IMG/VR virus record: IMGVR_UViG_2778261382_000002
DNA: 20,648 nt
Origin: a virus
Lineage: Duplodnaviria > Heunggongvirae > Uroviricota > Caudoviricetes
Direction: 5' to 3' (one strand)
Position numbers and translations under genes: made by a program. Below the pieces are notes generated by a model. The model worked only from the letters and a program-made list of their open reading frames with translations, did not search any database and was not told the origin of the DNA. Each line of letters begins with the position of its first letter. The stretch's first letter is position 1. Shown piece after piece: positions 916-14,619 of this stretch.

Positions 916-1002
916 GCCCGGATGGTGGAATCGGTAGACACAAGGGATTTAAAATCCCTCGGCGTTCGCGCTGTGCGGGTTCAAGTCCCGCTCCGGGTAC
1001 CA
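916..1002 (+). tRNA. leuZ: tRNA-Leu (anticodon TAA), long variable arm
   Basis: 87-nt class II tRNA GCCCGGATGGTGGAATCGGTAGACACAAGGGATTTAAAATCCC...GGGTACCA with TAA anticodon and extended variable arm. Confidence 0.95.
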
Positions 1003-1045
1003 TGGGAAAGATAAGAATAAAATCAAAGCAATAAGCAGTGTCGTG

Positions 1046-1069
1046 AAACCACCTTCGGGTGGTTTTTTT
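1046..1069 (+). terminator. Rho-independent terminator of the tRNA operon
   Basis: Perfect 8-bp stem AAACCACC/GGTGGTTT with TTCG tetraloop, followed by a T7 run. Confidence 0.8.
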
Positions 1070-1161
1070 GTATCTTCTTTTTCATTTCCGAAGATGCGTC
1101 CGAAGATGATTTTTCTCTGGACGCATCATCATTCATTTTCTCTGGCCACCAACTACGGGCA

Positions 1162-1416
1162 CTACTTTAACTTTTCGGTCATATGCTGCTGTCTGTCGTG
1201 GGTTCTTATGCCCGGAAATTGCTTGCTTCTCTTCCAGGCTGCCTTAGGCGTAATCAGTTCTGGTGGGGGGAATGCCGATTTCTCCCGCGTGACCTTAATG
1301 TTTTCTGGCAGGTGTAGCCCAAGTTCGCAGCGGCTCCGTGCTTCAATAATGCCATTGGTACCATCGGCAAGTACCAGGTGAACCGCGTCACCACGCTTTA
1401 ATGTGAGTTTAAGCAT
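1162..1416 (-). CDS. Hypothetical protein (84 aa), translationally coupled to the upstream recombinase-like remnant
   Basis: Its ATG (1416-1414 on the - strand) overlaps the TAA stop of the upstream - strand ORF (TAATG). No family recognised. The overlapping + strand ORF 1043-1381 looks non-protein-like. Confidence 0.35.
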   Translation of the reverse strand: MLKLTLKRGDAVHLVLADGTNGIIEARSRCELGLHLPENIKVTREKSAFPPPELITPKAAWKRSKQFPGIRTHDRQQHMTEKLK

Positions 1417-2172
1417 TAGCGTACCCTCAGCGAACGTTCGCCGCGTTCCAGATGTGCGCCTGGTACCGGGTTAAGTAATTCGGCAGGTGGTGTTTCTCCA
1501 CGCGCCATTATTTCTGCGGCAACCGCCTCCGCAGATTCAATCACTTCTTTAATGGCTCGCTTGTTTGGTGTAATAACCGTTTCTACTTCAACAAGTGACA
1601 CGCCTTCATACTCGTCCGGGATCTTATCTTTGCTATCGATAATTACCCGGATAGCCCCCTGTGCATCAGTAAATGTGTTTTTAGCAGTTTTCAATTTACG
1701 ATGAATATTCTTTATCGCCTTTGGCTTCTGCTGCTTTTCGGTGTACATCCACTTCGCGGGCGATGAGGCCAAATACCTTGTTTACTTCGTTGGTGGTTAC
1801 CGCGGCGGCCAGCGTATTGGCAACGTTGATCAGCTTCTCATCCAGTTCCTTACGAAGACGGGTAGCATCTTCCGCATTCTCGCTGGCATTCTTGATATCA
1901 AACTCAGCTTTATTCCTCTGGCGGTATTCCGGATTGTCGTACAGGCCCATGAAAATATCGGCGCTGAATCCGAGAGGGGATAGCGCTTTCTTAACAGCAT
2001 CCGTCCAGGATTTCTTCGGCGCTTCGCCGTCGCTTGTTGGTCCATGTCTAGTATCGTAGATGTACGGAGTGCAACCGTAAGCCGCAGACTCGCCGCGCAC
2101 CCCATTCAATATGTACCAGACTCTCACTTTCATGGTGTGGTGCATTTCACATAGGTACAGCGTGGCTGAGAT
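1416..2172 (-). pseudogene. Rad52/Sak-like single-strand annealing recombinase, N-terminally truncated and frameshifted
   Basis: ORF 1696-2145 (-) contains KKSWTDAVKKALSPLGFSADIFMGLYD, which resembles the Rad52-family signature (K-E-A-V-T-D-x-L-K-R-A-L...F-G...L-D-K as I recall it). Only about 45 residues precede this motif and an in-frame stop lies at 2173-2175, so the N-terminal half of the domain is missing. The C-terminal part continues in another frame (ORF 1416-1772), overlapping by 77 nt. Confidence 0.5.
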
Positions 2173-2587
2173 TCAGTTAGTAATTCGTTGGGTTATTGCG
2201 ACATGGCGCCGTCGTAGCGGAAGCGTTCCGAAACCTGCGAACATTTGCCGCGTAAACCGGTTTGACGGATACCTGGCTGACGCTGAGACGTGGGCCACTG
2301 CTGAGGCTGCCGTTGACCCTGCTGAAGTTGTGAAGGGCTACAACGAGATTCTGGGCGACCTGCTACCTATAGCTGAAATTGATACTGACCGCCGTCGGGC
2401 AATCCTGCGCCTGCTGGCACATATGCGCACGCAAACTCTTGGCGCATTTATCGGCTACTTCGAAAAATTCCGCGATAACGCCCCAGACTTCTATTTCGGC
2501 GGCGAATATCGCACCGGCTGGCGGGCAGGGTTTGATTACCTGATGAAGCCAGAAACACTGCGTAAAACCAGGGAAGGGGCATTATGA
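2111..2587 (+). CDS. Phage replication initiation protein, C-terminal fragment (probably N-terminally truncated), coupled to the helicase gene
   Basis: The C-terminal roughly 100 aa (AEVVKGYNEILGDLLPIAEIDTDRRRAILRLLAHMRTQ...FGGEYRTGWRAGFDYLM) resemble the conserved C-terminal domain of phage O-like replication proteins that partner DnaB-type helicases. The first roughly 55 codons are W/C/R-rich and look non-coding. Stop overlaps the helicase start (ATGA at 2584-2587). Confidence 0.4.
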   Translation: MYQTLTFMVWCISHRYSVAEIQLVIRWVIATWRRRSGSVPKPANICRVNRFDGYLADAETWATAEAAVDPAEVVKGYNEILGDLLPIAEIDTDRRRAILRLLAHMRTQTLGAFIGYFEKFRDNAPDFYFGGEYRTGWRAGFDYLMKPETLRKTREGAL

Positions 2588-3975
2588 ATCCAGAAGAACT
2601 GGAAGCGATCGTTCTCGCTGGTCTGATTAACGGTGGCGCGACGCCTGACGCGTTTGATGTGATTGCCACTACTCCGGAGGAAGCCTTCAGCATCGTGTTT
2701 CACCGTCGCGCTTTCAGCGAAATCAAAAAGCAGGCACTGGCGAACGGCATGATCGACATGTTGTTTATCAGCGAAGCGCTGGGCGGTTCCAGCCTTGCGG
2801 ATCTGTCTCAAATATCCCGGATCCCGGCAACGGTACCGAATCTGAAAGGCTATGCCGGGAAAATGGTGCGGGCATGGCGGAGCCGCAAAATGGCGGCATT
2901 GTTGCAATCTGGCGCGGATGGTATCCGTAACGCTGTAAACCAGAGTCAGCGTGATGAGGTTATTGAATCTCATGTTGCTCAGGTGCTGGATATGAGCGCC
3001 GCTACCGGCACAGTCCAGCCGGTACACATCAAAGAGCTGTTACCGCTCTACATTGACACCGTTGATAAACGGATGTCTGGCGACGCGCAGGAAATGATGC
3101 TGAAAACCGGAGTCGAGGATCTGGATGTCGCCCTGGGCGGTATCAACATGACCGACCTTGTTGTGGTTGCCGGTCGTCCAGGCATGGGGAAAACGGAATT
3201 TACCCTGAAGATTATCGATGGCGTTACCGCAGATGGCGGCGGCGCACTGTTTTTCAGCATGGAAATGGGCGCTCAGCAGATTGTTGAACGTACCGTTGCC
3301 GGGGCTGGGAATATGTCCACGTCGCGTCTGCGTAATCCAAAAGAAATGGACGATGAGGATTTGACCAGATTAACCGCCGCGCTTGCAATCATGCAGGATC
3401 GCGATATCTGGATTGTTGATGCCACTGATTTGACGATTGAGCAGATCCGCGCCATTGCAGAGACTCATAAACGCCGTTATCCGCACCTGAAGTTGATTGG
3501 TGTTGATTACATGGGCCTGATCAAAAAACCGAAGGCCGAGCGCCACGATCTCGCTGTCGGGCATATCTCCCGCAACATGAAGACTATGGCCATGCGTCTG
3601 CATACCCCTGTTTTTGCTCTTAGCCAGCTTTCCCGCCAGGTGGATTCTCGACCTGCTGGCCAGCGTCGCCCGGTGATGTCGGACCTGCGCGATTCCGGCA
3701 GTGTTGAGCAGGACGCTGACAGCATTTTGTTTTTGTACCGCGATGAAGTTTACACACCTGATTCACCTGCAAAGGGTATCGCCGAGGTGATTATCGGTAA
3801 AAACCGTTCTGGCGGGGCAGGTGAAATTATTTATCAGGAATTCCGGAATGGGCATTTCCTGCCAGTTGATCAACACGTAGCACGCGAAAAATTACGCATC
3901 CAGAAGGAGGCAGAGCAACCGAGAAAACGTGAAAAACGGTATTCAAACAAAAACTTTAATACGGACCCATTTTAA
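2584..3975 (+). CDS. Replicative DNA helicase, DnaB family (phage-encoded)
   Basis: 463 aa with Walker A GRPGMGKT, DnaB-like N-terminal domain and C-terminal RecA-like core motifs (FFSMEM, LSQLSR, SDLRDSGSVEQDAD). Size and motif spacing are typical of DnaB. Confidence 0.9.
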   Translation: MNPEELEAIVLAGLINGGATPDAFDVIATTPEEAFSIVFHRRAFSEIKKQALANGMIDMLFISEALGGSSLADLSQISRIPATVPNLKGYAGKMVRAWRSRKMAALLQSGADGIRNAVNQSQRDEVIESHVAQVLDMSAATGTVQPVHIKELLPLYIDTVDKRMSGDAQEMMLKTGVEDLDVALGGINMTDLVVVAGRPGMGKTEFTLKIIDGVTADGGGALFFSMEMGAQQIVERTVAGAGNMSTSRLRNPKEMDDEDLTRLTAALAIMQDRDIWIVDATDLTIEQIRAIAETHKRRYPHLKLIGVDYMGLIKKPKAERHDLAVGHISRNMKTMAMRLHTPVFALSQLSRQVDSRPAGQRRPVMSDLRDSGSVEQDADSILFLYRDEVYTPDSPAKGIAEVIIGKNRSGGAGEIIYQEFRNGHFLPVDQHVAREKLRIQKEAEQPRKREKRYSNKNFNTDPF

Positions 3976-4013
3976 CCACGCATGACCAGCGTGAAATAAC
4001 CGAGGAAAGACCA

Positions 4014-4424
4014 ATGACCACCATTTCAGGCAAATTAGAGTACCCGTCGGACAAAGGACACATAGACGACGGTAAAAACTATCTCGACGTCATTTTGTGG
4101 AATATGAACGCCGGGCCACGTGCGCGCACTCGTGCGGTTTTTGTACCAAGACCCAAAGCAGGCAATTTTTCAACACCAGCTCAGCCTGCCCGTCAGGCAT
4201 CCGTAGCCGCAGCGCCAGCAGTGAAATGTAAGGGTAAAACGCACATCGGGATCGCGATTCGCAGAAATGGTGAGCGGCAAGTGAAACTCCACGAAACAGC
4301 GACAACCTGGTGTGCCTCACCGCATGAAACTTACGACAAGATAACCGGACAGCGCATTGGCGCGCCCGGTCGCTGTCGCCTGCTGCTGAGTTCCATCACT
4401 CCGATAGCAAAGAAAGGGACGTGA
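4014..4424 (+). CDS. Hypothetical phage protein (136 aa)
   Basis: ORF preceded by GAGGAAAG Shine-Dalgarno; first gene of a tightly packed small-gene operon. Pro/Ala-rich middle and three Cys; no family recognised. Confidence 0.45.
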   Translation: MTTISGKLEYPSDKGHIDDGKNYLDVILWNMNAGPRARTRAVFVPRPKAGNFSTPAQPARQASVAAAPAVKCKGKTHIGIAIRRNGERQVKLHETATTWCASPHETYDKITGQRIGAPGRCRLLLSSITPIAKKGT

Positions 4425-4425
4425 T

Positions 4426-4662
4426 ATGGCAGGGCAATCAGATTACCTGCCGCCCGGCTTACCACACAACCGCGCCAAATGGCCTCAGGAATACCTGCTT
4501 AAAGAGCACTACGACATGCGAGCGGCGACGCTGATCCGCCAACTCTTTGAGAAACGTATTCCGAGGGGAAGCGTGATTGAGCAAATCGGAATGACGCCGG
4601 ATACGTACCGGGAATTTTTCAGAGAGCGTCTGAACTACTGGAGAGGGGGGATGGAGCAATGA
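4426..4662 (+). CDS. Hypothetical phage protein (78 aa)
   Basis: Starts 2 nt after the previous stop; its stop overlaps the next start (ATGA). No family recognised. Confidence 0.45.
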   Translation: MAGQSDYLPPGLPHNRAKWPQEYLLKEHYDMRAATLIRQLFEKRIPRGSVIEQIGMTPDTYREFFRERLNYWRGGMEQ

Positions 4663-4970
4663 AATACAAACGGTGGGTGCGTGCGGAAGTCGTAATCATC
4701 AAACAATGTGCGGGCAGCATGATAGTTGAACGTATAGGGCAGCTTATTGGAAGAACCGGTGCTGCGGTACGCACAAAAGCGCGCGAGTTGAAAATCTGTA
4801 TGTATCTGCGGGGTAATTATCACCAGTCAGTGAAATACCGCCAGGAGGATATCGAGCTGGCAAGGGAATTACATCAGTCGGGTATTAATCGCCAGGATAT
4901 CGCGGAAAAACTCGAAATGTCGATCGGTGCGGTGAATCAGTATGTTTATTTTGAGCGGAGGATTTCATGA
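4659..4970 (+). CDS. Hypothetical protein with two helix-turn-helix-like segments (103 aa); possible DNA-binding regulator or small-terminase-like remnant
   Basis: SMIVERIGQLIGRTGAAVRTKAREL and INRQDIAEKLEMSIGAVNQYV both have HTH-like character. Translationally coupled on both sides. Confidence 0.45.
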   Translation: MKYKRWVRAEVVIIKQCAGSMIVERIGQLIGRTGAAVRTKARELKICMYLRGNYHQSVKYRQEDIELARELHQSGINRQDIAEKLEMSIGAVNQYVYFERRIS

Positions 4971-5191
4971 AAGAACTTTTTCTGGCATTTGTGCCCCGGT
5001 TTATTAATGACCAGATCGCACTGACTGATAATGGTGAACAATATGAAATTGCCTGCAGCATGGTGGATGTGAATCCTGGCGAACGGTATGACGCGATGTG
5101 TGACCTGAAAATATTTACCTGGCTGGGTTGGGCTATTCCGTGTGGAGAACCAACCAATATTCGCCCATTTGAGAGCAGGGAGGCTGTATGA
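4967..5191 (+). CDS. Hypothetical phage protein (74 aa)
   Basis: ATGA-coupled to the upstream gene; no transmembrane or enzymatic motif recognised. Confidence 0.4.
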   Translation: MKELFLAFVPRFINDQIALTDNGEQYEIACSMVDVNPGERYDAMCDLKIFTWLGWAIPCGEPTNIRPFESREAV

Positions 5192-5304
5192 GTGAGTTGA
5201 AAATACGTCGCAAGGCAATAGCACACGTTAAAAATCCATTACCAGTGCCCGCCGAATGCCATTTTTGTGGTGGGAATGTACGGATTGGTACGTATGTATG
5301 GTGA
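5188..5304 (+). CDS. Small hypothetical protein (38 aa) with one CxxC motif
   Basis: Not in the supplied ORF track (below 60 aa). ATG at 5188 overlaps the upstream stop (ATGA) and is preceded by GGGAGG 4 nt upstream. Product MSELKIRRKAIAHVKNPLPVPAECHFCGGNVRIGTYVW. Confidence 0.3.
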   Translation: MSELKIRRKAIAHVKNPLPVPAECHFCGGNVRIGTYVW

Positions 5305-5378
5305 TTGCGGAGTGACGTAAAACGAATCGTTGTGGGTGTAATATCGTCAATATCATTGGTTTCCCGGAGGGAAAGGAC

Positions 5379-5528
5379 ATGTTTGGCGATAAACTGGAGT
5401 TACCACGGAACGGGCGGATAGTGCTCTATATTTCAGATTACAAAGTAACCAGGGCTGAGGTGTTGGAACCGGAAAAACATCTGGTCACGTTACCGGACAT
5501 TATTGAGTTGTATAAGCGGGTCGGATAA
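5379..5528 (+). CDS. Small hypothetical protein (49 aa)
   Basis: Not in the supplied ORF track. Strong SD (GGAGGGAAAGGA) immediately upstream of ATG 5379. Product MFGDKLELPRNGRIVLYISDYKVTRAEVLEPEKHLVTLPDIIELYKRVG. Could alternatively be a remnant of a deleted upstream gene. Confidence 0.3.
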   Translation: MFGDKLELPRNGRIVLYISDYKVTRAEVLEPEKHLVTLPDIIELYKRVG

Positions 5529-5546
5529 CGGCTGGGGAGGTAACTG

Positions 5547-6854
5547 ATGCCGTGGAACAATTTTCCGCACCTCGCCGCCAGGGCGTTCAATCAACCGCTT
5601 TTGCTGGAGCCCACCTACGCGCGGGTATTTTTTTCGGCGCTGAGCGACCGGTTCGGTACCGGGCGACTGATTGATACAGCGTCTGGAGAGGTAATGAACA
5701 GCGACGAAATGAACGCGCTCGCGATGGGGTGGGACAGCAGCGAGCGAACACGCCAGAAATCGTATCGCGTGGAGCGTGGTATAGCCGTTCTGCCGGTTAC
5801 CGGGACGCTGGTTCATAAATTGGGTTATATCAACCCAGTTAGCGGGATGAGCGGTTACGACGGAATCGCAAAACGCCTGCAGCAGGCGATTTCTGATCCC
5901 GATGTAAGAGGGGTCCTGCTTGATATTGACTCCCCTGGCGGTGAAGTCGCCGGCGCGTTTGATACTGCTGATTTAATCGCCCGGGCGCGAGAGCAAAAAC
6001 CTGTGTGGGCGCTGGCCAGCGATACGGCCTGCAGCGCTGCCTATTTGCTGGCGTCAGCGTGTTCGCGCCGGCTGATAACGCAGACAGGCACAGTTGGTTC
6101 AATCGGTGTCCTGATGGCTCACCGCTGCGTCGAAAAAGCGCTGGAGATTGCTGGCGTCGACGTGACGCTGATTTACGCCGGCGCGCACAAAGTTGACGGG
6201 AACCCGTATTCCCAGCTGCCAGGCGACGTTCGCGACGAATTCCAGCTGAGTATTAACAGCACGCGCGAGCAGTTCGCGCAAAAAGTCTCGGATTATACCG
6301 GGCTGAAAAAATCCAGGGTGCTGGCCACGGAAGCTGCAGTATTTATCGGCGCGGACGCGATTAAATCTGGTCTCGCTGATCAACTCGTTAATTACGCGGA
6401 CGCTATCGCAGTGATGGCCGACGCACTGAAACCAAAAATGGAGCGCTTTATGTCTGGTACAGAAACCACGGCGGAGACCACGACCACAGAACAAACCGCG
6501 ACCACGACTACTGTCGCGCAGGTTGAGTTTAACACGGAGCAGATTCGCGCGGACGCCGCATCAAGCGAACTGGCGCGTGTGATGGCCATCATCAATTGTC
6601 CCGAAGCTGTTGGGCGCGAGGCGCAGGCAAAAGCGCTCGCTGGCGTCCCCGGGATGACGGTCGGGCAGGCGCAGGTAGTCCTCGCTGCAGCACCTAAAAC
6701 GGCGCAGGCGCGGACAGAAACGGCGCTCGATACACTAATGAGCACTGAATCACCAGCGACTATTCAGGATGCTGGCAGTACTACGGCAACAGGAACAACC
6801 GCAAACGTCTCGATGCTGGTTGCTGCAGGGCGTTCAATTTTAGGGGATGAATAA
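5547..6854 (+). CDS. Head maturation protease / minor capsid protein C (S49 ClpP-SppA-like), lambda gpC-like
   Basis: 435 aa; N-terminus FNQPLLLEPTYARVFF, GIAVLPVTGTL, DSPGG, KPVWALASDTACSAAYLLASAC and IYAGAHKVDGNPY parallel lambda gpC as I recall it. Strong SD GGGGAGG upstream. Confidence 0.9.
   Translation: MPWNNFPHLAARAFNQPLLLEPTYARVFFSALSDRFGTGRLIDTASGEVMNSDEMNALAMGWDSSERTRQKSYRVERGIAVLPVTGTLVHKLGYINPVSGMSGYDGIAKRLQQAISDPDVRGVLLDIDSPGGEVAGAFDTADLIARAREQKPVWALASDTACSAAYLLASACSRRLITQTGTVGSIGVLMAHRCVEKALEIAGVDVTLIYAGAHKVDGNPYSQLPGDVRDEFQLSINSTREQFAQKVSDYTGLKKSRVLATEAAVFIGADAIKSGLADQLVNYADAIAVMADALKPKMERFMSGTETTAETTTTEQTATTTTVAQVEFNTEQIRADAASSELARVMAIINCPEAVGREAQAKALAGVPGMTVGQAQVVLAAAPKTAQARTETALDTLMSTESPATIQDAGSTTATGTTANVSMLVAAGRSILGDE
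6450..6854 (+). CDS. Putative nested scaffolding protein (Nu3-like), in-frame internal start within C
   Basis: In-frame ATG at 6450 with GGAG 6 nt upstream (another in-frame ATG at 6438); the product would be the C-terminal roughly 135 aa of C, analogous to lambda Nu3 nested in C. Inference from organisation. Confidence 0.35.
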   Translation: MSGTETTAETTTTEQTATTTTVAQVEFNTEQIRADAASSELARVMAIINCPEAVGREAQAKALAGVPGMTVGQAQVVLAAAPKTAQARTETALDTLMSTESPATIQDAGSTTATGTTANVSMLVAAGRSILGDE

Positions 6855-13125: not shown

Positions 13126-14329
13126 ATTAAAATCAAATCTGAAAGCGAGCGCGAGCCAGGTTTATGCGGTACTGACAGACCGGGGGGCGCAACTTGAAGC
13201 CGCTGCGCTGGCATCGGGTGTACCCGTGGTGCTGAATAAATTCGTTATTGGCGACGCAAACGGAAACGACGACGTAACACCGGACCCGGCACGAACTGCA
13301 TTAATTCACGAGACGTATCGTGGGGATATTAAATCCGCAGAAAATAGCGGTAACCAGGTTATCTTTACACTTTACGTACCGCCAGACACTGGGGGCTATA
13401 CTATCCGTGAGGTGGGGATATTAACAGATAAAGGCGAGCTGTACTCTGTGGCGCGCTCGCCGGACATTTTAAAACCTACGGACAGCAACGGTGCGCTGAT
13501 TTCAATCACGTATAAATACACACTCGCGGTGTCCAGCACATCTACGGTTAATGTTGTAGTATATGACAACTACGTAACTCCCGAGGAAGCTGACAAAAAA
13601 TATTTGCAGATAAGTAAAAACTTATCTGAAATTCCCGCAAATGGTGAAACTGCTCAGCAGGCTGCGCGGAAAAATATTGGTATAGATGGGGACGTTGCAT
13701 ATAGAGATAAGGGTAATGCATTTACTCATCCAAATACTTTTAAAGATGATGTGATTTTTGAAGACGTTTTATCCTCTAAAAAACAAATAAATATAAACAA
13801 ACCGGGCACTGATTTGACGTTGTTTTCACTTGCTGGTTTATCAGATGTGTCGGGCGATTATTTAGATTTTTCGACCCGTGGAGAAAACAATCAGAAGGTT
13901 TTTTATAGATTACGCGGAGTTCACTATGATGGCCTGGTATTACTGTGTGGCGGAATGACGTATAAATACTGGAATGAGGCTAATCTTAAACCGGTTAAAA
14001 CGATTAACGGGGAGTCGCCGGATGAAAATGGCAACATAGATATAAGTCTTTCACCGGACCCATCACCGGAAATAGGTGTTGTTGGCGCGGTTAATACTTA
14101 TGCGCTTGTCGCTATTAATCATGCACCACAAATACTACCGGGCTCCATATGGGCTGGAGGTGATTTATATTACGCTAGTATAAATAATACCGGTTCATAT
14201 AACACGGATATTGCCACAAAACCATTTTATGACACACCCCTTGTTGGCTCATGGCGAGCTATGGCGTATTCACCAGGCGGGGTCGGTGATATTGGGACTG
14301 CCTGTTTTTTAGCTATTAGGATTGCGTAA
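13118..14329 (+). CDS. Tail fiber protein (P2 gpH-like N-terminal domain, divergent A+T-rich C-terminal receptor-binding region)
   Basis: N-terminal roughly 150 aa (VIGDANGNDDVTPDPARTALIHETYRGDI...YVPPDTGGYTIREVGILTDKGELYSVA) parallel the P2 gpH N-terminus. The C-terminal roughly 250 aa are unrelated and visibly more A+T-rich. Confidence 0.85.
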   Translation: MAKLKSNLKASASQVYAVLTDRGAQLEAAALASGVPVVLNKFVIGDANGNDDVTPDPARTALIHETYRGDIKSAENSGNQVIFTLYVPPDTGGYTIREVGILTDKGELYSVARSPDILKPTDSNGALISITYKYTLAVSSTSTVNVVVYDNYVTPEEADKKYLQISKNLSEIPANGETAQQAARKNIGIDGDVAYRDKGNAFTHPNTFKDDVIFEDVLSSKKQININKPGTDLTLFSLAGLSDVSGDYLDFSTRGENNQKVFYRLRGVHYDGLVLLCGGMTYKYWNEANLKPVKTINGESPDENGNIDISLSPDPSPEIGVVGAVNTYALVAINHAPQILPGSIWAGGDLYYASINNTGSYNTDIATKPFYDTPLVGSWRAMAYSPGGVGDIGTACFLAIRIA

Positions 14330-14619
14330 TGATAAGTGTTGATTCATTTAGAAAAATAACAAACCCTGTTTTTAATGACGAGCATGGGTTATCTATAAAT
14401 ATTATTTGCGATATTGACGGGATTGGAAACGACATTCCATTCACCGCAATGAAAAATGATTGCGAGGAACACGGTAGGGTTTTATATGAAAGAGCGCTGA
14501 GCGGGGATTATGGGAGCATTTCTAAATTTGTAAAAAAGAGCAGACGCAAAAACTCCAGACTACATTACGGACTGTTGGCGATCTGTCAATTGAGGCATTC
14601 TCAATTCAGTGTGCAGTAG
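14329..14619 (+). CDS. Putative tail fiber assembly chaperone (possibly frameshifted; continuation 14526-14717 in another frame)
   Basis: TAATG-coupled to the fiber gene, in the expected Tfa position. A second frame open from 14526 to the TGA at 14715-14717 encodes ...SIQCAVDAGTASDAQIENLAELKEAIATRIGENREGIK, which resembles Tfa C-terminal motifs; the frames meet at an A6 tract (14532-14537). Confidence 0.45.
   Translation: MISVDSFRKITNPVFNDEHGLSINIICDIDGIGNDIPFTAMKNDCEEHGRVLYERALSGDYGSISKFVKKSRRKNSRLHYGLLAICQLRHSQFSVQ

Follow-up and report, generated by a model that had tools for sequence, protein, structure and literature searches.

The block at positions 4,014–5,528 of the window, a 20,648-nucleotide stretch of viral DNA, probably forms the far end of the early-right (replication) transcription unit in a defective prophage and is a mosaic rather than a system. 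ORF1 and ORF2, following a DnaB-type helicase gene, would belong to the replication module, and ORF3 and ORF4 would be independent accessory genes, set in a slot that varies and holds DNA methyltransferases and other cargo in relatives. ORF5 would be what decay has left of a DUF3268 zinc-finger gene, and ORF6 would have been truncated when a 16.5-kb deletion, mediated by microhomology, joined the operon to the head genes. ORF1–ORF4 are real genes, and the block is ordinary mosaic prophage content with no new system. Two leads were left: ORF1 with the theta-like ORF2, linked to the helicase, and the ORF4 family, some members of which are fused to zinc fingers.

Prophage setting, deletions and coding status

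The window was a defective E. coli prophage adjoining pgsA and three tRNA genes. Its integration site was pgsA/tRNA-Gly-Cys-Leu of E. coli, and it originated from a temperate myovirus. A search of Rfam gave the three tRNAs and no other match. Four deletions were found in the window when it was mapped by blastn onto an intact relative. Strain CEA601S (NZ_CP166713.1) is one that harbours exactly this remnant, and one intact relative is the prophage at 2,137,035–2,180,284 of NZ_CP098214.1. One of them, of 5.1 kb with its junction at 2156–2158, took the 5' part of a RepO-like replication initiator gene and the entire immunity region. The 3' fragment of this gene (2111–2587, + strand) was annotated by PGAP as 'RepO, incomplete' in an identical genome. 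An intact gene for a phage DnaB-type replicative helicase of 463 residues (2584–3975, + strand) was present in the list of open reading frames, and is the conserved neighbour 5' of ORF1 and ORF2.

The 16.5-kb deletion had its junction at 5527/5528 with a 4-bp microhomology, GATA (5524–5527), at which the blastn segments overlapped (window 2156–5527 on locus L002 and 5524–6358 on locus L003). Its content was read from the annotation of the intact relative. The lost DNA included the end of ORF6 with its terminator-like site, located 3' of ORF6 in the intact relative, as well as ORF6N, LprI, GIY-YIG, IS1, ImmA, DUF1367, DUF1364, Q, the holins, the endolysin, the terminase, gpW, and the greater part of the portal gene. 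Comparison with the intact relative showed that only the last ~20 nucleotides of the portal gene remained (5528–5547, + strand), with a TGA overlapping the ATG of the next gene. The latter, an S49-family head protease/scaffold gene (5547–6854, + strand), was the first head gene left. ORF6 (5379–5528, + strand, 49 codons, phrog_340) was the 5' two-thirds of a 73-aa gene that was cut at codon 49 by this deletion, and its TAA stop codon (5526–5528) was formed across the junction.

The preliminary description had placed the block between the replication and head modules, a position that proved to be a deletion scar; of 5,426 complete E. coli genomes, only 3 had it. The contact of ORF1–ORF6 with the head genes is due only to the 16.5-kb deletion, and the block is accordingly ordinary prophage content and no new six-gene system. 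The same description had likened the position to that of the nin, Q, and lysis genes, and this was borne out in the intact relative, where ORF1–ORF4 opened the region before cargo genes, DUF1367, DUF1364, Q, and the lysis genes. A tidy operon of unassigned genes between modules can therefore arise by prophage decay, here as a scar, a truncated gene, and a pseudogene stub.

The early promoters of lambdoid phages reside in the immunity region. These promoters were presumably lost with that region here, and the block is probably silent or only weakly expressed because of this deletion. A crude consensus promoter search of the + strand between 1000 and 6000 found none. Support for silence is weak, because the same search was also blank on the + strand of the intact relative's immunity region.

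The six + strand ORFs of 136, 78, 103, 74, 38, and 49 residues were all present, as were the ATGA overlaps at 4659–4662, 4967–4970, and 5188–5191. The expected Shine-Dalgarno sites were seen as purine-rich stretches 5' of every start (GAGGA, AAAGGGA, GGAGAGGGGGGA, GGAGGA, GGGAGG, and GGAGGGAAAGGA, from ORF1 to ORF6). The view that the ORFs form a real co-translated operon and not debris held for ORF1–ORF4, which were tightly packed with pN far below pS, and did not extend to the ORF5 stub and the truncated ORF6. Against close alleles, ORF1–ORF3 gave pN values of 0.006–0.037 and pS values of 0.03–0.14, and ORF4 gave 0–0.006 and 0.06–0.13, respectively. Of the six ORFs, the PGAP gene calls in identical genomes comprised ORF1–ORF4 and no others, and thus left out ORF5. 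ORF1–ORF4 were thus intact and under purifying selection, and the data support them as real, tightly packed, translationally coupled genes. That the small ORFs are non-coding debris staying open by chance describes ORF5, with its near-neutral drift, and partly the truncated ORF6. As an account of the block it is hardly credible, given the constraint on ORF1–ORF4, the tens of diverged members in their families, and the confident predicted fold of ORF4.

The helicase-linked pair and conservation of the block

The comparison of gene order covered 80 viral loci together with 14 species genomes. Nearly every viral locus kept the order DnaB–ORF1–ORF2, as did phages ZF40 and BUCT708 and 11–13 of the 14 species genomes, and a DnaB-type helicase gene lay 5' of ORF1/ORF2 in nearly all related loci. 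This trio is conserved across Enterobacterales prophages; a literature search for DnaB/theta-like synteny found nothing. ORF3–ORF6 were found only in the closest Escherichia loci (L006–L017 and L093), and in L013 and L014 unrelated sequence took the place of ORF5 and ORF6. In the other ~66 viral loci and 13 species genomes, ORF2 was accompanied in most cases by DnaB and ORF1, and different genes came after it. The slot after ORF2 was variable and was occupied in relatives by methyltransferases, ParB-like, HNH, and other genes. Relatives of ORF6 were also found behind other genes.

The preliminary description had regarded the six ORFs as the best candidate for one uncharacterised system and had proposed conservation of the block as a check. 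The claim failed because ORF1–ORF6 were not conserved as a unit in the sampled loci. A dedicated accessory system, for defence or counter-defence, carried as cargo between the replication and late genes, would be in keeping with the tight packing and ATGA overlaps. The position is also an accessory hot spot, holding methyltransferases in relatives, with an RloB/ATPase pair and GIY-YIG and ImmA genes among the cargo further downstream. Such a system is nevertheless very improbable: besides the lack of conservation as a unit, two of the ORFs are fragments, ORF1–ORF2 are tied to the helicase and not to ORF3–ORF6, and the adjacency to head genes is the deletion scar. The PADLOC defence models at E ≤ 0.1 also gave no match for ORF1–ORF5 or full-length ORF6. 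About 8% of complete E. coli genomes carried the block, and a function of it, if any, would thus be common. Little depends on this particular window.

None of the six proteins had initially been matched to a family, which was not upheld, as all except ORF5 fell into PHROG families and ORF2 was theta/Hot-like. ORF1 (4014–4424, + strand, 136 residues, phrog_5148) was composed of an N module (residues ~18–47, DDG..I.W.MN..RAR.R...P.P) and a middle module (residues ~75–134, KTH..ETAT.W..YDK.TG.R.G..GR.RLLL), and lacked the ~85-residue winged-helix-like C module carried by most relatives. No relative of ORF1 was found in the PDB by single-sequence or family-profile searches, and an AlphaFold model built on a five-sequence alignment was unusable (pLDDT 36). 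The ORF1 family was represented by 62 distinct homologues. ORF1 would be a modular partner within the replication module. Identical ORF1–ORF2 alleles sat behind helicases only 28–30% identical to each other (L008–L012 and L093), and therefore any interaction of ORF1/ORF2 with the helicase cannot be allele-specific.

As judged from distant sequence similarity, ORF2 (4426–4662, + strand, 78 residues) is probably homologous, though divergent, to P1 Hot and the theta subunit of Pol III. It matched phrog_1105, 'theta subunit', at 2.1e-27, PF06440 at 18.4 bits (E 0.0019; curated cut-off, 34.6 bits), and NCBIfam PRK10969 at E 0.017. The single-sequence search of the PDB gave noise and a profile was needed to reach HOT; with the family profile, P1 HOT (1se7/2ido) was the sole match (E 0.014), and hhalign aligned ORF2 and HOT with E 1.2e-4 and 30% identity across 57 columns. 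Precomputed PF06440 hits were present in the ORF2 homologues P0149, P0152, and P0179, from a set at 59–78% identity, and one homologue was named 'DNA polymerase III subunit theta' in UniRef. The segment TPDTYREFFRERLNYWR of ORF2 was aligned with QPENLRTYFMERLRHYR of HOT in the conserved third-helix motif. ORF2 had both this motif (..PE.LR.[WY]F.ERL..[HY]R) and the small size (~75–85 residues) of theta/Hot proteins. Residues Arg62, Phe65, Arg68, Leu69, Asn70, Trp72, and Arg73 were invariant in the family alignment, and the family shared a conserved N-terminal extension, [SA]DYLPxG[LI]PxN..WPQ. The apparent invariance of this N-terminus is partly due to ascertainment, because the scans used MAGQSDYL as the search pattern.

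P1 Hot can substitute for theta, and theta was suggested to enhance epsilon proofreading, as summarized in PMC7556043. Structures of epsilon186:HOT are cited in PMC3664792. By analogy with P1 Hot, ORF2 would most likely bind and stabilise epsilon (DnaQ), which serves the host Pol III in proofreading, during phage replication. We also considered that the DnaB-type helicase, the ORF1-family protein, and the theta-like ORF2 form a replisome-capture module, which would be a novel type of Pol III accessory encoded by phages. The theta-like bundle of ORF2 would then dock on epsilon of the host Pol III core, and the N-terminal peptide of ORF2 together with ORF1 would tie the core to the phage replication fork. 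This arrangement is a speculative and rather unlikely extension of the epsilon-binding role. A clamp-binding motif in the N-terminus of ORF2 (QSDYL, resembling QADMF of the alpha subunit) was also considered and was downgraded, because the Gln was not conserved in an independently gathered set of homologues (TGADYL in P0156, GNADYL in P0174, and ENSDYL in ZF40). A divergent theta/Hot-like lineage systematically tied to DnaB and ORF1 in Enterobacterales prophages may provide a handle on why phages encode theta homologues.

ORF3, ORF4 and the DUF3268 stub

ORF3 (4659–4970, + strand, 103 residues) is predicted to be a DNA-binding protein with two helix-turn-helix (HTH) repeats, on the basis of its alignment and its match to phrog_323 (2e-25). 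The two HTH-like segments noted at the outset were thus located in this protein. Sub-threshold hits to HTH_7, HTH_24, and Sigma70_r4_2 were observed, and 80 homologues bore the NCBI name 'DNA-binding protein'. The comparison with the PDB gave weak HTH hits, and the single-sequence search gave noise. The family, of ~100–110 residues, is widespread in Enterobacteriaceae prophages. ORF3 was also compared, as a possible fragment, with the longer proteins encoded after the theta-like gene of ZF40 and BUCT708, and this idea was dropped because no similarity was found.

ORF4 (4967–5191, + strand, 74 residues, phrog_2241) was predicted as a small, mostly beta-strand protein with a confident fold; this fold had no known relative, and the family profile matched nothing in the PDB. 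ORF3 and ORF4 are small overlapping genes of which the first encodes a DNA-binding protein, as would be seen in a toxin–antitoxin or regulator–effector pair. Such a pair is highly improbable, since ORF3 homologues elsewhere have different neighbours, with unrelated genes next downstream in Kluyvera and Mangrovibacter prophages, and relatives of ORF4 are found either by themselves or as fusions with other domains. This led us to reject ORF3 and ORF4 as a conserved pair. Toxin and antitoxin families gave no hits save a weak HicB-like HTH (phrog_8245, E 0.0013).

ORF5 (5188–5304, + strand, 38 codons) retained the opening ~33 residues of a DUF3268 (PF11672) zinc-finger protein; such proteins have 157–164 residues, and the original gene would have encoded about 150. 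Residues 6–33 of ORF5 matched residues 20–47 of Cobetia phage Carin1 gp22 (pairwise E 7e-11), a 157-residue protein that contains DUF3268 (2e-28). Residues 48–157 of Carin1 gp22 had no counterpart in any of the three frames, and ORF5 itself had no hit in Pfam. The pN/pS ratio of ORF5 was about 0.7–0.9. Its first Cys was lost in alleles L008, L010–L012, and L017, and its ATG start was changed to TTG in L009 and L017. ORF5 is a pseudogene fragment of a DUF3268 gene that drifts almost neutrally, a remnant and not a family member. The CxxC motif ascribed to one of the ORFs was indeed present, as CHFC in ORF5, although ORF5 is not a gene.

ORF4, originally with the zinc-finger gene that is now ORF5, may have had a Lar-type anti-restriction function that acts early and protects incoming phage DNA; we regard this as possible but doubtful. 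Domains of the ORF4 family were fused to Lar_restr_allev in P0110 (2.4e-10) and P0124 (2.8e-6; 27.9 bits against a cut-off of 28.6 bits) and to a zinc ribbon in P0098. ORF4 overlaps the start of the DUF3268 stub, and Carin1 gp22 had a faint Lar match (E 0.073). A gene with a Lar fusion was located ~1 kb upstream of a DNA methylase gene, and methyltransferases often occupied the slot after ORF2. However, the fusions were a minority of the 55 ORF4-family clusters, and the fold of ORF4 was without a known relative. Moreover, ORF4 does not need the zinc-finger partner, because the partner is dead throughout the lineage while ORF4 stays strongly constrained. Early anti-restriction functions are a candidate role for the ORF4 family, in which zinc-finger (Lar) fusions recur.

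Comparison with known systems

The intact relative resembled the lambda nin region: small, closely packed early genes separate its replication genes from the antiterminator Q, and the DUF1367 and DUF1364 genes lie immediately 5' of Q. It differed in that ORF1–ORF6 had no match to the Pfam nin families (NinB, NinG, NinH, and others), and the window has lost the true nin-like genes together with Q and the lysis genes. When compared with DUF3268 (PF11672), residues 6–33 of ORF5 aligned with the N-terminal C-x2-C-G-G knuckle region, whereas only about 28 of the 121 domain positions and one of the two Cys pairs were retained, and these drift neutrally. The Lar restriction-alleviation protein of the Rac prophage (PF14354) was related to ORF4 through the Lar domains that are fused to ORF4-like domains in some relatives.

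The helicase-linked genes had counterparts in gp15–gp16–gp17 of Pectobacterium phage ZF40, which encode a DnaB helicase, an ORF1-family protein, and a theta-like protein in the same order. The phage deposited as Stenotrophomonas phage vB_SmeS_BUCT708 had the same trio in this order, as DnaB, a hypothetical protein, and a theta-like protein. ZF40 gp17 was annotated in RefSeq as 'DNA polymerase III theta subunit'. However, ZF40 gp16 had the N and C modules without the middle module, whereas ORF1 of the window had the N and middle modules without the C module, and the genes 3' of the theta-like gene in ZF40 and BUCT708 were unrelated to ORF3–ORF6.

ORF2 was of the same size class as theta and P1 Hot (78 residues, compared with 76–83) and shared with them the C-terminal helix motif P-[ED]-x-[YL]-R-x-[FY]-F-x-[ED]-R-L-x-[YH]-[WY]-R. 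As in the case of P1 Hot, the gene is carried by a phage despite the use of the host Pol III. In contrast to both proteins, ORF2 had an extension of ~13 residues that begins ahead of the aligned theta/HOT core. In addition, ORF2 was located in an early replication operon, directly preceded by a DnaB-type helicase and ORF1; P1 hot, in contrast, is placed among the late genes in the account of PMC7556043.

Deletion scar beside the six-ORF block

The block of six small ORFs at 4014–5528 is ordinary mosaic prophage content adjoining a deletion scar. Among 5,426 complete genomes of E. coli, megablast found the stretch in 468, and it was chromosomal in every case. The window starts with pgsA (1–549), which is followed by tRNA-Gly, tRNA-Cys, and tRNA-Leu and then by a prophage whose head module is lambda-like and whose tail module is contractile and P2-like. 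When this prophage was measured against its intact relative in NZ_CP098214.1, four separate deletions were located: 1.36 kb at 1244/1245, with loss of the integrase; 0.37 kb at 1697/1698; 5.1 kb at 2156–2158, which took out the cI/cro/YdaT region together with the 5′ portion of the initiator gene; and 16.5 kb at 5527/5528, from the end of ORF6 through most of the portal gene. The last deletion removed the ORF6 end, an ORF6N gene, LprI, a GIY-YIG nuclease, IS1, ImmA/IrrE, DUF1367, DUF1364, the Q antiterminator, two holins, the endolysin, both terminase subunits, gpW, and the portal gene except its final ~20 nt. Its two flanks have the 4 bp GATA (5524–5527) in common, a microhomology that fits illegitimate recombination. 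A 120-nt probe spanning the junction was contiguous in only 3 genomes, and its halves lay apart in ~450 others. The location of the block between the replication and head modules, emphasized in the preliminary description, is thus the scar of a rare, derived deletion and not a designed position.

The window prophage is unable to excise or package. Genes for integrase, the immunity region, Q, lysis, terminase, and portal are missing from it, and the head protease, decoration, capsid, and complete contractile-tail genes were ~99.9% identical to those of the intact phage. The S49 peptidase (head protease/scaffold) gene at 5547–6854 encodes 435 aa in the window and 369 aa in the intact relative, where a 198-bp in-frame deletion has occurred between short direct repeats (..GADA..; window 6359–6546). 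Since this deletion is in the "intact" relative and not in the window, the two prophage copies decayed in different places. The ORF at 14329–14619, after the tail-fibre gene, was frameshifted by a 1-nt deletion at ~14531 relative to the intact prophage, giving 96 aa compared with 129 aa (L003 14380–14769), and PGAP placed no gene there in an identical genome.

A 125-bp stretch (947–1071) overlaps the 3′ end of tRNA-Leu and has a second copy at the opposite end of the prophage (L001 37555–37679 and L003 21506–21630, in strain CEA601S and the intact relative, respectively); this repeat is presumably the duplicated attL/attR core. The stretch contains a strong terminator-like hairpin at 1045–1066. 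Strain CEA601S (NZ_CP166713.1) carries a complete P2-like prophage (L001 1–16942) immediately upstream of an otherwise identical remnant. The window aligned to L001 only from 947–948 on, and its first 1,245 nt matched the tRNA-flanked arrangement of the intact relative (L002), so the genome of the window does not have the CEA601S-type insertion.

Early operon and the conserved helicase–ORF1–ORF2 unit

All six ORFs were confirmed on the + strand with their described lengths: ORF1 (4014–4424, 136 aa), ORF2 (4426–4662, 78 aa), ORF3 (4659–4970, 103 aa), ORF4 (4967–5191, 74 aa), ORF5 (5188–5304, 38 aa), and ORF6 (5379–5528, 49 aa). The ATGA stop/start overlaps at 4659–4662, 4967–4970, and 5188–5191 were present, and each of the six starts was preceded by a purine-rich, Shine-Dalgarno-like stretch. 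In the intact phage, ORF1–ORF6 would form the end of an early-right operon in the order cro, YdaT-like, initiator, helicase, and ORF1–ORF6, with a terminator-like hairpin ~90 nt past ORF6. A segment deleted from the window (L002 13702–13806) has a promoter-like site, TTGACT-17-TATAGT (10/12 matches), right after full-length ORF6 and then a terminator-like hairpin; it may be where the early operon gives way to the cargo island farther downstream (ORF6N, LprI, GIY-YIG, and ImmA). Expression of ORF1–ORF6 in the window is doubtful, because the immunity region was lost and a consensus scan found no sigma-70-like promoter on the + strand at 1000–6000; such a scan is weak evidence, as the immunity region of the intact relative also gave no + strand promoter-like site.

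Eighty loci were collected by an IMG/VR scan with ORF2 and then searched by tblastn. DnaB–ORF1–ORF2 was present in nearly all of them, and in some ORF1–ORF2 was 96% identical even where the helicase was just 28% identical. ORF3 and ORF4 were limited to the 12 closest loci, two of which were devoid of ORF5 and ORF6. The commonest genes 3′ of ORF2 encoded an MT-A70-type methyltransferase, a C5-cytosine methyltransferase, a ParB-like protein, and an HTH-HNH protein, and relatives of ORF6 were also located after other genes. In a one-genome-per-species set, ORF2 occurred in Escherichia, Rosenbergiella, Enterobacter, Citrobacter, Raoultella, Serratia, and Yersinia, with DnaB upstream in 12–13 and an ORF1-family module in 11–12 of 14 loci; ORF3–ORF4 occurred in E. 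whittamii only. The conserved unit is therefore helicase, ORF1, and ORF2, rather than the six-gene block proposed originally, and ORF3–ORF6 are one version of a slot whose content varies. In related viral loci (L008–L012 and L093, positions 2231–3547), ORF1–ORF4 blocks of 95–100% amino acid identity adjoin helicases only 28–30% identical to that of the window, which indicates a recombination breakpoint in the 38-nt helicase–ORF1 gap.

ORF1 matched phrog_5148 (1.5e-86), a family without an assigned function. Three modules were seen across 62 distinct homologues: an N module (DDGxxxxxxIxWxMNxxxRARxR....P.P), a middle module (~60 aa) that is also encoded as a separate ~67-aa protein (phrog_1226), as in the early-left region of phage mEp460, and a winged-helix-like C module (~85 aa) whose Pfam hits, to WH_Lhr and BPP1_LPA, were all sub-threshold. 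All three modules occur in most relatives; the window ORF1 has N and middle, ZF40 gp16 has N and C, and one Yersinia prophage has C only. The AlphaFold model had a pLDDT of 36, and a search for PDB relatives found none. From its fixed place between the helicase and theta-like genes, ORF1 is probably a further replication accessory. That the helicase, ORF1, and the theta-like protein act as a replisome-capture module seems unlikely.

ORF3–ORF6 in the variable slot

ORF3 is the protein with two HTH-like segments noted previously, which were found to be two helix-turn-helix repeats. Its family (100–110 aa, "DNA-binding protein" per NCBI) is hosted by prophages of Salmonella, Pantoea, Citrobacter, Enterobacter, Kluyvera, and other genera, and ORF3 would bind DNA. 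The Kluyvera homologue comes after a different replication module (DnaT-like, DnaC-like, PerC), and the following gene in Kluyvera and Mangrovibacter is unrelated to ORF4.

ORF4 belongs to phrog_2241, for which an exhaustive HMMER search gave 55 representative clusters, mostly of 70–100 aa. The AlphaFold model on this alignment was confident (pLDDT 90.4, pTM 0.72), with four long beta strands coming after a short N-terminal helix. ORF4-family domains were fused to a Lar restriction-alleviation domain in P0110 (PF14354, 2.4e-10), to a Lar domain just under the cut-off in P0124 (27.9 vs 28.6 bits), and to a zinc ribbon in P0098; a DNA methylase gene lies ~1 kb downstream of the P0110 gene. These fusions and the DUF3268 stub (ORF5) immediately following ORF4 suggest that the ORF4 domain was long ago partnered with a zinc finger and perhaps acted in anti-restriction, a hypothesis that is rather improbable.

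The CxxC motif attributed to one of the genes is present, in ORF5, but ORF5 is a pseudogene stub. Residues 6–33 (IRRKAIAHVKNPLPVPAECHFCGGNVRI) matched residues 20–47 of Cobetia phage Carin1 gp22 (157 aa; pairwise E 7e-11) and the equivalent region of a 164-aa Achromobacter phage protein, both DUF3268 zinc-finger proteins (PF11672, 2e-28 and 9e-32, respectively). No counterpart of gp22 residues 48–157 was left in any frame of the window or the intact relative, and PGAP did not annotate ORF5. Among close alleles, ORF5 had drifted (pN 0.08–0.10 vs pS 0.11), whereas ORF4 was under constraint (pN 0–0.006 vs pS 0.06–0.13). The first Cys is gone in one allele group, the start is changed from ATG to TTG in two alleles by a mutation synonymous in ORF4, and in L013 and L014 the sequence departs a few codons past the common ATGA start. 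The start and ribosome-binding site of ORF5 were kept because both fall inside the ORF4 end. ORF6 (phrog_340, without an assigned function) has 73 aa in the intact relative and ends after codon 49 in the window, with a TAA stop assembled across the deletion junction; its close alleles showed zero non-synonymous changes. ORF5 and ORF6 are fragments.

ORF2 as a probable theta/Hot homologue

No family had been recognized for the six proteins, and PADLOC defence models gave zero matches to them. ORF2 is a probable theta/Hot homologue, and the remaining proteins fell in catalogued PHROG families that have no assigned function. ORF2 matched phrog_1105, "DNA polymerase III theta subunit" (2.1e-27), and PF06440 under the curated threshold (E 0.0019). 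When an 11-member family profile was searched against all PDB sequences, phage P1 HOT (1se7/2ido) was the sole hit (E 0.014, 62 residues), and hhalign with the HOT segment gave an E of 1.2e-4 with 30% identity over 57 columns. Homologues at 59–78% identity have precomputed PF06440 hits, and one is called "DNA polymerase III subunit theta" by UniRef. The last helix is a signature common to ORF2 and HOT (TPDTYREFFRERLNYWR and QPENLRTYFMERLRHYR, respectively). On these alignments, ORF2 appears to be a divergent theta/Hot protein, either within that family or at any rate related to it. Crystal structures of epsilon186:HOT are available (PMC3664792). By homology, ORF2 would bind host DnaQ and join the host Pol III core via epsilon while the phage replicates.

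The QADMF motif of the alpha subunit resembles QSDYL in the ORF2 N-terminus (PMC3664792). A beta-clamp-binding motif there is unlikely, as the Gln is replaced in abundant homologues.

Phage BUCT708 (OM816834.1), deposited as "Stenotrophomonas phage vB_SmeS_BUCT708", has a helicase and an ORF2 that are 76% and 75% identical to those of the window prophage, respectively, and its gene order resembles related viral-contig loci (L018 onward); its stated host may be worth checking. Phages ZF40 and BUCT708 have the same DnaB, ORF1-like, and theta-like order as the window. When compared with theta and Hot, ORF2 alone has a conserved N-terminal extension, the core of which, [SA]DYLPxG[LI]PxN..WPQ, was defined on an independently gathered homologue set. 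The closest known entity is P1 Hot/E. coli theta, and the setting of ORF2 is distinct in being early and helicase-linked, not among late genes as for P1 Hot.
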